From a virus (Duplodnaviria; Heunggongvirae; Uroviricota; Caudoviricetes), in the IMG/VR virus record IMGVR_UViG_2802429242_000009, positions 1-33,994 of that record: a DNA stretch of 33,994 bases; one strand, written 5' to 3'. Of this stretch, positions 12,001 through 18,000 are shown one piece after another. Each line of letters opens with the position of its first letter. Positions within the stretch are counted from its first letter, which is position 1. A program made the position numbers.

Positions 12001-15000
12001 CTTGCTGCTGATCTTGCCGAGAAGAAAATGCAACTGGAAAACCAGCTCGCAATTGCCGCACCTAAAGTTGAGTTTGCCGATCGCGTTGGCGAGGCCAGCG
12101 GAATTTTGATTGGAAACTTTGCAAAGGTTGTTGGAATTGGTCCAAACAAACTGTTTGCGTGGATGCGCGATCACAAAATCCTTATTGCTTCAGGTTCCCG
12201 GCGCAATGTGCCAATGCAGGAATATATGGATCGCGGCTATTTCACAGTGAAAGAAACAGCGGTCAACACAAATCACGGGATACAGATATCGTTCACCACA
12301 AAAATCACCGGGCGTGGTCAACAGTGGCTGACCAGAAAGCTGCTCGATAACGGAATGCTGAAAGTAACAGGGGAGGCTGCTTAATGGCTAATCTACGCAA
12401 AGAAGCACGCGGCAGAGAATGCCAGGTACGTATTTACGGCGTATGCAATGGCAATCCTGAAACTACAGTTCTGGCACATTACCGGATGGCTGGAATTTGC
12501 GGAACGGGAATGAAGCCTGACGACCTGATCGGCGCATGGGCTTGTAGTGACTGCCACGCGGAGATCGACCGACGCACCCGGATTCTCGACAACAAAGACG
12601 CCAGACTTTACCACCTCGAAGGCGTGATCAGGACACAGGCGATACTGCTGAAGGAGGGGAAGATTAAGCCATGAACGAATATCAGTTTGTGCTTCCATAC
12701 CCGCCGTCGGTGAATACCTACTGGCGAAGACGGGAAAGTCAATACTACATCAGCGATAAAGGCCAGAAATACCGAAAAGACGTCCAGCAAATCATCCGCC
12801 AACTCAAGTTAGATATTTTCACCAAATCACGACTCCGCATCAAAGTCATCGCAGACGTTCCAGACTCCCGCCGCCGCGACCTCGATAACATCCTGAAAGG
12901 TTTACTCGACTCCCTTATCCACGCCGGATTTGCGGAAGACGACGAGCAATTCGATGACATTCGCGTAATTCGTGGCGTGAAAGTACCAGGCGGACGGCTT
13001 GGAATAAAAATCACCGAACTGGAGAACGCATGAACGCCACAATTCAAACGATACCAGAGCTTCTTATCCAGACACGAGGCAATCAGACCGAAGTGGCGAG
13101 GATGCTTTCCTGCGCAAGAGGAACAGTGCTCAAGTACAACCGAGACAGCAAAGGCGAGCGTCACGTAATAGTTAACGGCGTCCTGATGGTCACGCCAGGC
13201 AAAAAGGGAAGACGATGAGCATAAGAGAACTAAACCTCACCAAAGAACAGCACGAGTGGCTGAATGGCTGGCTTGAACTGTGGGGCGCATGGGTTTATTC
13301 AGGTCGTCTGGAAAAGCGCATGAGCAGCGTAATAGCGAAGTTCATGGAGAGCGTAGAGCCGGGAAGAATTATGACAAGGCCAATGTGTAATGATGATGAT
13401 GGAATGTTGATTTCTCAGGTCGTCGATTCCGTCATGTACATTGACAAGAAAGCCTTTGGAATCCTCCTCAGCTACTACGCTCATGGCTCTTCCAAGCACG
13501 CCATTGCATCTTACTATCATCGCGTCGCAAAACCTCGCAAGATGTTATGCCGTGGCGGCGGGCGCATTCAAAAACCATCGCTCGCAACCTGTCGACGGGA
13601 AGTTGACGAAATCCTCAATGCCTCGTTGTTTATGATTTACCCGGTTCTGGATAGTGCGTTTAAAAATCGGAAACGTGTAGAGAAAATTAAACATGTAGCA
13701 TAGAACGTGTTGACATCATTGAGCAAATGAGCAACACTATTGGCATAAGCTGCCGTTAGTGACTCTTAAGTTGCAACGGTGGCTTTTTTTATTTGGGTCA
13801 GTCGTATAAAGGTCATTACGGAAGGCTGTTAACCTTCTTATCGTGGTTCGAGTCCACGCTGTCCCGCCAAACATGCTGGTTTAGCTCTAATGGTAGAGCA
13901 GTCGCCTTGTAAGCGAATGGGTAGCGGTTCAAGTCCGTTAACCAGCACCATAACTGAGCCGTAGCCACTGGCTATCCTGAATTCATCAGTGATAGTTACG
14001 CTGCGGCCTTCTTTTTTCCCCTTCCCAATATAAGAACTACGCAATCCGTTACTGGCGGAGGCGTTGCTATGAAATCAATGGACAAAATCTCAACTGGCAT
14101 TGCCTACGGAACATCTGCTGGTAGTGCAGGATACTGGTTTTTGCAGTGGTTGGATCAGGTCAGTCCGTCACAGTGGGCAGCGATTGGAGTGCTTGGAAGC
14201 CTTGTGTTGGGTTTTCTCACTTATCTGACAAATCTGTATTTCAAAATCAGAGAAGACAGACGAAAGGCTGCGAGAGGTGAATAATGCCTCCATCATTACG
14301 AAAAGCCGTTGCTGCTGCTATTGGTGGCGGGGCTATTGCTATAGCATCTGCGTTAATCACTGGCCCAAGTGGTAACGATGGTCTGGAAGGCGTCAGCTAC
14401 ATACCATATAAAGATATCGTTGGTGTATGGACTGTATGTCACGGACACACCGGAAAAGACATCATTCCCGGTAAAACGTATACCGAAGCAGAATGCAAAG
14501 CCCTCCTGAATAAAGACCTTGCCACGGTCGCCAGACAAATTAACCCGTACATCAAAGTCGATATACCGGAAACAACGCGCGGCGCTCTTTACTCGTTCGT
14601 CTACAACGTGGGTGCTGGCAATTTCAGAACATCGACGCTTCTTCGCAAAATAAACCAGGGCGATATCAAAGGCGCATGTGACCAGCTACGTCGCTGGACA
14701 TACGCTGGCGGTAAGCAATGGAAAGGGCTGATGACCCGTCGTGATATTGAGCGTGAAGTCTGTTTGTGGGGGCAGCAATGAGCAGGTTAACCGCGATTAT
14801 CTCCGCTCTGGTTATCTGCATCATCGTCTGCCTGTCATGGGCTGTTAATCATTACCGTGATAACGCCATCGCCTACAAAGACCAGCGCGATAAAGCCACA
14901 TCTATCATCTCTGATATGCAGAAGCGTCAACGTGATGTAGCTGAACTCGATGCCAGATATACAAAGGAACTTGCTGATGCTAACGCGACTATCGAAAGTC

Positions 15001-18000
15001 TCCGTGCTGATGTTTCTGCTGGTCGTAAGCGCCTGCAAGTCGCCGCCACCTGTGCAAAGTCAACGACCGGAGCCAGCGGCATGGGCGATGGAGAAAGCCC
15101 AGGACTTACAGCAGATGCTGAACTCAATTATTACCGTCTCCGAAGTGGAATCGACAGGATAACCGCACAGGTTAACTACCTGCAGGAGTACATCAGGACG
15201 CAATGCCTTCGATGATAGCGATAATTTTACTCATCATCCTTCACATCTGGCTCTGTAGACAGGGTGGTACTCACTTCTGGAGCGAATCCAGATTAAACAT
15301 CTCATTGCTGATGCTTGAAGTTAAGCATCTGGCGCGCGGTAAGGGGCTGCGTTGAGATAAGAGCCAGTCATAACAAATACCAGGATTTAGCCTCGCATTT
15401 GCGGGGCTTTTTTACATCTGCAGTAAACCGCGCATCGCAGCGCGTAACAATCCCGAGTCTTTCAGAAAGCTGAGCCTGAGAACTGCCGTATATGGTGGCG
15501 ACCATCTCGGGGCGGCTTTTCTGTGCGAACAGGCTCATCTTTCTAAAAGGTAAGACGCTATGAATATCGTTCCACTAAATTACAAAGGCGAACCTATCCG
15601 CTTCAATACTGATGGCTGGATTAATGCCACTGATATTGCAAAACGTTTCGGGAAGCGTCTGGATCACTGGTTGTCCAACGCTGAAACTCTCGAATACGTT
15701 AGAGCTCTGGATGAGGTTTATTCAGGTGAACCATCGAAAATTCTACATACCCGTGATTCCGGGTATGTAAAAACAAGCAAGGCACGAAAGGACAGGGGCG
15801 GCGGAACATGGCTGCATCCAAAGTTATCAGTTGCCTTTGCAAGATGGTGCGATCCGAAATTCTCCGTATGGTGCGACCTGCACATTGATAGTCTGCTTCG
15901 CGGTGAACTGACTGAGCAGCAGAAATATGAGCAAGCATGTCGCATTCGCGATGACCGGAAATCAAAAGCCAGCAATGGGGCAAGAGAGATGGCTCGCTGG
16001 CGATGGGATAAGCCGGTTATTGAAGCAAATGTTGAGTACTGGCGCGAGCAACTGCAGTTGACTCTCGATATCGCGTGCTGATGGCAAACGCAAAACTGCG
16101 TTATCGGAAAAATCAAAGCATTACGAGAACTGAGCAACGGCTATCCATTACAAAGCCCATTTACGGGTGGGCTTGATAATGAAACCGGAATTTATTCTGG
16201 GCCACCAGTTAACGGCAGTACCACGAAACAACCCAAGCCAGTAAGTGGGGAAATAACACCGGCAGCCACTGAAAGATGAACCTCCTGCCTTATGGCAAAA
16301 AAGATTCTTTGTGGTGGCGGACTGATGGAAAGACATCCTAATTTCAGCCAAACATTGAAGGAGTTGTTATGTCAGCAGAAGGTTTCAATAACCCATCAAA
16401 ATTTCGGGATGAGTGGGATAGCAGCGTAAAGAGTAAGTGATGCCATCACAAAAGCCATTCCCTACAGAGTGGCTTTGATAATGGCTTATACCCTGCACGG
16501 GATAACTTAACTGATATCCCCACAAGCGGATAAAGAGGCTCTCAATGTCCGACATCTACATCATCAAACTGAATACGAACGACGGCGGCGAGTAAACGGG
16601 CAAGATGTCACGACGTCAGCCTGAGCTGGTTAATGGCTTTGTGCCGCTGGCGACCTAGACGGGAGTGGGGGGGGGGCGTACTTCGCTCCTGCTGATGTCA
16701 AGTGCGTGTAGTTCACGCCAATATCGGTAGGTGACGATAGAACTGTGGAATAGACATGGCATTATCCTGGACGTGTAAATGTTCAATCGGAAATGCCATG
16801 CTGGTCAGTTGGTTGCTTAGACCTTCTTATAAGAGATAGATCTTCCGAATGGTGGATATATAGAAGTTGAATCTTTAATTTCATAAGTGGCCACTACATT
16901 TCCCGCAGCGTCCAACTCACGGTAAAGGTATTCATCGGTATCCTGACCTTTTCGAGCTCCTTTCCAGTTAGAAGAGACAAGCTCCAGTGTATGGTCATCT
17001 GGAATGCCGATTTTCTGTTTGTATTCATCACTCATGTGAAATCCTTAAAGGTAATTTATGGCACTCACCGACAAACAAGAAATGTTCTGTCGCGAGTACC
17101 TCATCGATTTAAACGCCACGCAAGCGGCTATTCGGGCGGGGTACAGCGCAAAGACAGCTAACCGTACCGCATCCGAAAACCTGTCAAAACCTGACATCAA
17201 GTTAAGAATCGCCGAACTGAAAGCGCAACGCAATGATCTTGTTGGTATTAATGCAGAATATGTACTTAATCGCCTTCTTGAAATCGACCAGATGGATGTG
17301 CTCGACATTCTCCTGCAAAACGGTGAGTTAAAGCCCATTAAAGACTGGCCTAAAGTATGGCGCACAACGCTATCAGGAATGGATGTCGTGGAGATGGTAT
17401 CCGCAGATAGTTCCGCACTTCTGAAGAAAATCAAATGGCCAGATAAGGTCAAAAACCTCGAACTTCTTGGAAAGCATGTTTCCGTTCAGGCATTTAAAGA
17501 ACAAGCTTCTCATGAGCTAACAGGCAAAGACGGCGGCGCAATTCAGATTGAAACATCACCGATGAGCACTCTATTCGGAAAATGACCTCGATTAATCCTA
17601 TCTTTGAATCGTTCATTGAGGCGCATCGCTACAAAGTCGCCAAAGGCGGTCGAGGTAGCGGCAAATCATGGGCAATTGCGAGGCTGCTTGTTGAAGCGGC
17701 GCGTCGGCAGCCTGTGCGTATTCTCTGCGCTCGTGAACTGCAAAACAGTATCAGCGATTCGGTAATCCGGTTGCTTGAAGACACCATCGAGCGGGAAGGG
17801 TATTCGGCTGAGTTTGAAATTCAGCGTTCAATGATTCGTCATCTCGGAACAAATGCTGAGTTCATGTTCTACGGCATCAAAAACAACCCGACGAAGATTA
17901 AATCGCTCGAAGGCATTGATATCTGCTGGGTGGAAGAAGCGGAAGCGGTAACGAAGGAATCATGGGATATCCTGATACCAACCATCCGCAAGCCGTTTTC

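Follow-up and report, generated by a model that had tools for sequence, protein, structure and literature searches.

The DNA analysed in this study, a stretch of 33,994 nucleotides (nt) hereafter called the window, comprises positions 1 to 33,994 of the IMG/VR virus record IMGVR_UViG_2802429242_000009 (Caudoviricetes). At 14069-15215 of the window, the listing of open reading frames (ORFs) and the raw sequence showed four genes on the plus strand, S, R, Rz and Rz1, which make up a lysis cassette (Table 1). A preliminary description of the window had placed four such genes at these positions, and the ORFs and their Pfam families agree with it far beyond chance. All four genes were assigned to PHROG lysis families. 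The four reading frames are unbroken, with start signals and translational overlaps: the start of R overlaps the stop of S by one base (TAATG), and the start of Rz overlaps the stop of R (ATGA). Five ORFs of 52-68 amino acids (aa) on the minus strand in 13838-15127 showed no Pfam match and were dismissed as genes. NCBIfam held no model naming S, Rz, Rz1 or the 50-aa ORF that follows Rz, and R matched only unrelated equivalogs there, below threshold.

Table 1. Features of the lysis region and of neighbouring genes in the window.
Feature	Position	Strand	Basis or remark
Q21-type late antiterminator, 162 aa	13215-13703	+	PF06530, E = 9.3e-25; left end of the phage 21-like block
Late promoter pR', including -10 and transcription start	13710-13745	+	Positions transferred from phage 21 record OL657228
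tR' leader terminator, read through when Q acts	13747-13794	+	Position transferred from phage 21
tRNA-Asn (GUU)	13795-13869	+	ARAGORN; Rfam 55.3 bits
tRNA-Thr (UGU)	13875-13950	+	ARAGORN; Rfam 63.2 bits
S, S21-71 antipinholin frame, 71 aa, from Met1	14069-14284	+	PF04971 'Bacteriophage P21 holin S', E = 8.6e-36
S, S21-68 pinholin, 68 aa, from Met4 (second in-frame ATG, 14078)	14078-14284	+	Class II holin
R, GH24 lysozyme of the R21/RrrD type, signal-anchor-release endolysin, 165 aa	14284-14781	+	PF00959, E = 1.1e-45, 155 bits
Rz, inner-membrane spanin (i-spanin), P22/Sf6 allele, 145 aa	14778-15215	+	PF03245, E = 1e-34, 120 bits
Conserved 48-nt boundary sequence in Rz	14847-14894	+	Equivalent to the Sf6 'bsq7; boundary sequence' of the GenBank record
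Rz1, outer-membrane spanin (o-spanin) lipoprotein precursor, P22/Sf6 allele, 61 aa	14977-15162	+	PF06085, E = 2.6e-20; PHROG 3198, E = 4e-29
50-aa ORF	15203-15355	+	PHROG 11822 (unknown function), E = 3.7e-36; its first 13 nt lie within Rz
Terminator-like GC-rich hairpin, then T run	15389-15408	+	Downstream of the cassette, between the 50-aa ORF and the KilA-N gene
KilA-N gene	15560-16081		
Tailspike with P22 head-binding domain	31018-32814		

The membrane and lipoprotein features of the encoded proteins were judged by Kyte-Doolittle profiles, residue composition and a PROSITE-style lipobox pattern. The S protein, which scores 122 bits on PF04971 (cutoff 26), is identical to S21-71 of phage 21 (UMO75477) at all 71 of its 71 residues, and the two genes differ by 2 synonymous substitutions in 216 nt. 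Its N-terminus, M1-K2-S3-M4, is a dual start with a basic residue between the Met codons, and the translation-initiation (ribosome-binding) region is identical to that of phage 21. The two-transmembrane-domain (two-TMD) topology was carried over from the identical S21. TMD1 (residues 8-27, approximately) is weakly hydrophobic, with a Kyte-Doolittle value near 0 and 12 of 20 residues being G, A, S or T. TMD2 (residues 36-56, approximately) has a value of 1.7, and the charged C-terminal tail contains 6 basic and 3 acidic residues. The holin had been described as a near-copy of the S21 pinholin with a Met1/Met4 dual start, which is confirmed by the identity and the N-terminal motif. S21 is known to be made as S68 and S71, to form small heptameric channels, to use depolarisation as the trigger, and not to release a soluble endolysin (PMC9636201, PMC9239132). 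S showed 17% global identity to P22 gp13, a 108-aa holin that resembles lambda S.

The R protein is identical to R21 of phage 21 at 158 of 165 residues (95.8%). It matched the PDB entries 3HDE and 3HDF (phage 21) and 4ZPU (DLP12 RrrD) with E = 1e-92 to 1e-109 (3HDE, E = 5e-108); 3HDE is the full-length chain of the phage 21 enzyme, and 3HDF is the chain without the first 25 residues. Residues 7-27 of R, at the start of which lie the basic residues Arg6 and Lys7, peak at a Kyte-Doolittle value of 1.98 over 19 residues; of these 21 residues, 14 are G, A, S or T. The soluble endolysins P22 gp19 and Sf6 gp62, which served as negative controls for the signal-anchor-release (SAR) segment, showed no hydropathy window above 1.6 and no such N-terminal segment. 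The catalytic triad E35-X8-D44-X5-T50 is intact. A SAR segment is by definition weakly hydrophobic, with many Gly, Ala, Ser and Thr residues, and SAR endolysins of this kind carry the E-X8-D-X5-T triad and are triggered by depolarisation (PMC9239132). Hydropathy and composition thus show a SAR segment, in agreement with the earlier claim that the endolysin bears a signal anchor and is not a cytoplasmic lysozyme. Judging from its 95.8% identity to R21, R would be tethered to the membrane in an inactive form and would be released and refolded on depolarisation. The global identity of R to P22 gp19 was 28%, and the P22 lysozyme structure 2ANV was only a distant match (E = 3e-12). S and R are at most distant relatives of the P22 pair gp13 and gp19.

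Rz has an N-terminal TMD (residues 1-26, Kyte-Doolittle value 2.6) and two periplasmic cysteines, Cys92 and Cys143. The Rz1 ORF (14950-15162) is contained entirely within Rz and is read in the +1 frame (14778 mod 3 = 0; 14977 mod 3 = 1), and the likely start of Rz1 is the ATG at 14977, with an AAGGA Shine-Dalgarno sequence seven bases upstream. Rz1 satisfies the PROSITE-type lipobox rule, with Cys20 and with Arg/Lys within the first 7 residues, so that the embedded ORF does carry a lipoprotein signal; both the +1 embedding and the lipobox cysteine had been noticed in the preliminary description. The residue at position +2 is Lys, that is, non-Asp, and is compatible with outer-membrane sorting. 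A signal peptide of 19 residues and a mature protein of 42 aa from Cys20 are predicted.

The alleles of the two spanin genes differ in origin from those of S and R. Rz is identical to Sf6 gp63 at 139 of 145 residues (95.9%) and to P22 gp15 at 129 of 145 (89.0%), as against 86/154 (55.8%) for the Rz of phage 21. For Rz1, the corresponding values are 60/61 (98.4%) for Sf6 gp64, 58/61 (95.1%) for P22 Rz1 and 23/63 (36.5%) for phage 21 Rz1. The spanins do not belong to the phage 21/lambda-type allele, since residues 40-145 of Rz match that of phage 21 at 51 of 108 positions and Rz1 lacks a second cysteine. The Rz1 of phage 21 probably resembles lambda Rz1. The distal part of Rz (14895-15215) had matches in 169 phage records, of which 161 covered at least 80% of it, mostly with 90-99% identity. 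Nearly all of these phages are P22-like or HK97-like/mEp lambdoid phages, such as epsilon34, g341c, CUS-3, Sf6, Sf101, HK75 and Emek. P22, Sf6, CUS-3, PS34, epsilon34 and Emek have been placed in the 'HK97' o-spanin family, separate from the 'Lambda' family (Kongari et al. 2018, PMC6139136). The label of a phage 21-type cassette, under which the locus had been described, therefore holds for S and R and fails for Rz and Rz1. Likewise, the cassette does differ from that of P22 in genes 13 and 19, as had been stated, and does not in gene 15.

Upstream of S lies a late-gene control region. The promoter pR' was placed by gap-free alignment to annotated phage 21 (OL657228), which put the -35 element TTGACA at 13710-13715 and the Q-binding element (QBE), ATTGAGCAAATGAGCA, at 13718-13733. 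An Rfam scan around the cassette gave nothing beyond tRNA-Asn and tRNA-Thr. These two tRNA genes, placed after the late leader terminator and before the holin gene, are also found in Sf6 and in several E. coli prophages.

The extent of the similarity to phage 21 was determined by counting identities per segment against the complete annotated genome OL657228. At the nucleotide level, the identity was 98.2% for Q (159/162 at the protein level), 98.9% for pR'/QBE/tR' (one mismatch in the 91 nt of 13704-13794), 99.4% for tRNA-Asn and tRNA-Thr, 98.3% for the spacer before S, 99.1% for S, 95.6% for R and 91.7% for the first 117 nt of Rz. After 14894, it was 58.7% for the rest of Rz, with two indels. 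The phage 21-like block, which is 97% identical, thus spans approximately 13215-14894 and covers Q, pR'/QBE, tR', the two tRNA genes, S, R and the 5' end of Rz. The swapped block had been equated with 14069-15215; by the identity profile, it reaches 850 nt further to the left of 14069 and stops 320 nt short of 15215.

The right end of the block falls in a conserved sequence. Identity to phage 21 collapses directly after 14894, the last base of the 48-nt boundary sequence, which is identical to the corresponding sequence at 46/48 positions in Emek, 45/48 in Sf6, 44/48 in P22 and 41/48 in phage 21. The 5' part of Rz, coding for the membrane anchor and the juxtamembrane portion, was conserved in every allele examined. 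A derivation of the Rz 5' end from phage 21 was considered and rejected, since this stretch is also 87-100% identical in Sf6 and Emek. Because the Rz 5' end is alike in all alleles, the crossover can be given only as an interval, from the end of R to 14894. It lies at a mosaic joint that is already documented, the bsq7 boundary of Sf6.

The genome around the cassette is P22-like. Pfam identified the P22 portal, the gp4 tail accessory factor, gp7, an injectosome translocase, a Sf6-type needle knob and a tailspike with the P22 head-binding domain, and the structural DNA is 95-96% identical to that of Sf6, Sf101, CUS-3 and vB_EcoP-720R6. The nearest relatives of the window are phages of E. coli and Shigella. 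Over 8284-20781 (12,498 nt) the window is 100% identical, with the same numbering, to contig PTTC01000023.1 (72,274 nt) of assembly GCA_002966085.1, and it appears to be the first 33,994 nt of this contig. These results uphold two further points of the preliminary description, the P22-like structural background and the reality of module swapping, in that S and R of the phage 21 type stand beside P22-like virion genes.

We consider it highly probable that the locus is a complete lambdoid late-operon lysis cassette, consisting of a pinholin, a SAR endolysin and a two-component spanin, in an intact-looking P22-like (Sf6/CUS-3-type) prophage. On this reading, the cassette is a recombinant: the phage 21-like block, which begins with Q and ends early in Rz, is joined to a periplasmic Rz portion of the P22/Sf6 type with its embedded Rz1.

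Given the full identity of S to S21 and the near-identity of the promoter, leader and ribosome-binding regions to those of phage 21, the published lysis pathway can be transferred to this cassette with high confidence. According to this pathway, antitermination by the Q21-type protein at pR' would carry transcription past tR', across the two tRNA genes and on into S-R-Rz/Rz1. S made from Met4 would be the pinholin S68, and S made from Met1 the weaker antiholin S71, in which the extra Lys2 would delay the exit of the first transmembrane segment. R would be exported by the Sec system and held inactive at the inner membrane by its weakly hydrophobic SAR segment. At the programmed time, S68 would form many heptameric channels of about 2 nm, the membrane would be depolarised and the proton-motive force would collapse. 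Depolarisation would free the SAR segment, upon which R would refold to the active lysozyme and degrade the murein (for S68/S71, the heptameric pinholes and SAR release, see PMC9636201). Finally, the complex of Rz in the inner membrane and the lipoprotein Rz1 in the outer membrane would span the periplasm and disrupt the outer membrane, probably by fusion with the inner membrane (for spanin families and disulfides, see PMC6139136). We infer these functional steps from the identity of the proteins to studied ones, whereas the integrity of the genes, the overlaps, the identities, the motifs and the mosaic boundaries were observed directly.

The joining of parts from two sources would pose no compatibility problem. 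S must move along with the SAR endolysin, because a pinholin cannot release a soluble endolysin. Rz1 and the periplasmic part of Rz travel together as well, because Rz1 is encoded inside the part of Rz that it binds. In the hybrid cassette, the pinholin is accompanied by a SAR endolysin and Rz1 by its own Rz domain. The conserved membrane anchor of Rz, which lies between the S-R module and the Rz1 module, offers homology for the crossover. The pairing of a R21-type endolysin with a P22/Sf6-type spanin already works in phages of the Emek type.

It is worth noting that several observations weigh against this interpretation of a fully working cassette. A generic sigma-70 promoter scan missed pR', and its assignment comes by alignment only. 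R differs from R21 at 7 residues, including V23A, which lies in the SAR segment, and L62P. Ala23 (codon at 14352) is absent from the six other alleles compared, namely those of phage 21, Emek and four others, all of which have Val. Residues 61 and 62 are Ile-Pro (14464-14469) in place of the Met-Leu of phage 21, and this Ile-Pro is shared with the prophage of E. coli MMC-J-0105. In addition, mature Rz1 has no periplasmic cysteine, and covalent dimerisation must rest on Cys92 and Cys143 of Rz. The same cysteine pattern, two in Rz and none in mature Rz1, is found in P22 and Sf6. Spanins are held to need at least one periplasmic cysteine for an intermolecular disulfide (PMC6139136), and here it is Rz that supplies it.

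The combination found in the window recurs in other prophages. The exact R protein is encoded in two further draft P22-like prophage contigs, together with an identical S and a 145-aa Rz; the Q of one of these contigs is of the lambda/P22 type, and that of the other is a 172-aa Q21-like protein. Among complete E. coli genomes, the best 30 matches to 14069-21197 all include the P22-type terminase and portal. The match begins in S in 5 of them, 40 nt into R in 19 and in Rz in 6. A start 40 nt into R means the holin arrangement of the Emek type, and a start at Rz means a different S and R. The prophages of MMC-J-0105 and AR_0017, both from the group in which the match begins at S, are annotated with a class II holin, the lysozyme RrrD and a lysis protein; portal, scaffold and coat genes of the P22 type come next. 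As in the window, they have the identical 71-aa holin, a RrrD-type lysozyme (160/165) and a 145-aa Rz directly upstream of a P22-type terminase; they differ from it in their Q genes and in the small genes between Rz and the terminase.

A related block was also seen in another kind of prophage. At 9001-12040 of E. coli FDAARGOS_944, a RusA-NinH-Q-tRNA-S-R-Rz-KilA-N block is about 93% identical to that of the window. The head module of this prophage is wholly different, with a ClpP-like protease/major capsid fusion and a lambda-type tail, which indicates that the block moves between virion types.

Among deposited phages, S21 and R21 occur in lambda-like siphoviruses, 434, SfI and Stx phages. No P22-like isolate with S21 was found among the best rows of the phage collection, where the P22-like matches begin at R (query position 256) or at Rz (query position 710). 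The absence of S21 from these isolates does not amount to novelty, since the combination is present in prophages. Nor is a SAR endolysin unusual in a P22-like background; Emek, PS34 and BTP1 already have an endolysin of the R21 type. Exchange of lysis genes is well documented in this group. Six Salmonella P22-like phages contain three non-homologous holin types and three lysin types (PMC2629481), and phage L has kept P22-like 15/Rz1 with genes 13 and 19 unrelated to those of P22 (PMC8022706).

The cassette was compared with the known systems as follows. Phage 21 has the same S, SAR segment, catalytic triad, Q, pR'/QBE, tR', tRNA-Asn and tRNA-Thr, and the same S/R and R/Rz overlaps. It differs in the Rz/Rz1 allele, in the 7 substitutions of R, in its other annotated late-region neighbours and in its genus, Jouyvirus, whereas the window is of the P22-like podovirus type. 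The spanins of Sf6 and P22 agree with those of the window in length (145 and 61 aa), in the embedding and in the pattern of cysteines, and Sf6 also has the same 50-aa ORF downstream. Neither phage, however, has a pinholin or a SAR endolysin; the spanin is paired with lambda-type S and R in Sf6 and with gp13 and the soluble gp19 in P22. In the cassette type of the P22-like phages Emek, PS34, BTP1 and phiKp_30, the same Rz/Rz1 comes after a R21-type SAR endolysin (93% at the protein level). The holin of this type is small and of two-TMD size and has a Met1...Met4 motif as here, but it is a different protein of 67 aa, with 22 identities to S21 in a global alignment of 78 columns. Emek further differs in the N-terminus of the endolysin, in an extra 31-codon ORF between R and Rz and in a Q of the lambda/P22 type. 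Lambda shares the order S-R-Rz-Rz1, the dual-start holin, the embedded +1 Rz1 and the late-operon position after Q/pR'/tR'. It differs in its large-hole holin with three TMDs, in its soluble transglycosylase and in the periplasmic Cys29 of its Rz1.

There is another possible interpretation of how the hybrid arose, with the same function as its outcome. The ancestor could have been of the Emek/ST104 type, already equipped with a R21-type endolysin and Rz/Rz1, and only the segment from Q through the tRNA genes and S to about 40 nt of R would have been replaced by phage 21-type DNA. Emek, PS34, BTP1 and phiKp_30 match the window from 14324 onwards with 91-96% identity, the R and Rz proteins of Emek are identical at 154/165 and 137/145 residues, and query position 256, at which the match begins in those 19 of the best 30 E. 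coli rows, corresponds to 14324. R is, however, slightly nearer to phage 21 (95.6% at the nucleotide level) than to Emek (93.2%), and the first 105 nt of R, approximately, contain only 2 mismatches to phage 21, with no break at 14324. We regard this route as somewhat unlikely. As far as the alignments go, it does not separate cleanly from the direct acquisition of a phage 21 block.

It could also be supposed that a decaying cassette has been left behind in a cryptic prophage, comparable to essD-rrrD-rzpD of DLP12 in E. coli K-12, and that its lysis function has been lost. Close relatives of S and R are indeed present in 5,081 of 5,426 complete E. coli genomes, many of them in defective prophages. 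Four intact reading frames that keep their start signals and translational overlaps argue against such decay, as do a Q, pR' and tR' region that is 98-99% identical to that of the functional phage 21 and the replication, terminase, portal, scaffold, coat, ejection and tailspike genes alongside, none of which is interrupted. It is therefore very improbable that the cassette is a remnant of this kind.

A proposal about function was weighed together with these. The 50-aa ORF, which travels with the P22/Sf6-type spanin in Sf6 and in E. coli prophages, might be a fifth lysis component, or the V23A substitution might shift the spontaneous release of R and with it the timing of lysis. Even taken jointly, these two ideas have little likelihood in our judgement. 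The N-terminus of the 50-aa protein is strongly hydrophobic (Kyte-Doolittle value 2.95), and the ORF is annotated as gene 65 in Sf6 and as WP_001139682.1 in E. coli prophages. Its coding status is uncertain, because 6 of 8 nucleotide differences are non-synonymous in each of three homologues. The DNA matches of P22 and Emek end at 15206-15208, and the ORF therefore appears to be lacking in these phages.

The view implied by the preliminary description, that S-R-Rz-Rz1 was imported as a whole from a phage 21-type phage in place of P22 genes 13/19/15, can draw on the type of S and R and on the first 117 nt of Rz, but it is scarcely credible and is already refuted by the pairwise identities, given that the periplasmic Rz and all of Rz1 are the P22/Sf6 allele, that similarity to phage 21 drops with two indels past 14894, and that the spanins of P22, Sf6, CUS-3 and Emek fall in the 'HK97' and not the 'Lambda' o-spanin family (PMC6139136).

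Several other features of the window deserve mention. In Emek, an annotated terminator closely follows Rz and may be equivalent in position to the hairpin at 15389-15408. In the early left operon, a gene at 4939-5577 on the minus strand codes for a complete 'nucleotide modification associated domain 5' (Nmad5, E = 5.7e-71). The ORFs flanking it, 5574-5945 and 3795-4763 (both on the minus strand, 123 and 322 aa), showed no Pfam match, and the three genes could form a DNA-modification or anti-defence module. A recombination module at 1267-3247 on the minus strand contains the anti-RecBCD protein Abc2 (PF11043), a 159-aa ORF that matched no Pfam family, SSB and an annealase of the Erf/Rad52 family. 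Directly downstream of the tailspike gene, an Acyl_transf_3 acyltransferase gene (32885-33994, plus strand) runs past the end of the window. Its product looks like a serotype-converting O-antigen acetylase, as Oac of Sf6.

Both the type of this cassette and the mosaicism of lysis genes in P22-like phages, which has been described since at least 2004-2008, are already known, and nothing in them is new. The discovery value of the locus is small, since the four proteins are 96-100% identical to characterised or annotated ones and the regulatory region is nearly a copy of that of phage 21. Annotators should call the embedded Rz1 gene at 14977-15162. It is missing from the RefSeq (PGAP) records of equivalent prophages, NZ_CM128543.1, NZ_CP024886.1 and NZ_CP065613.1, which list the holin, RrrD and Rz. 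The value of the locus is rather illustrative: recombination joints fall where function allows them, with the crossover here in the conserved sequence for the membrane anchor of Rz.

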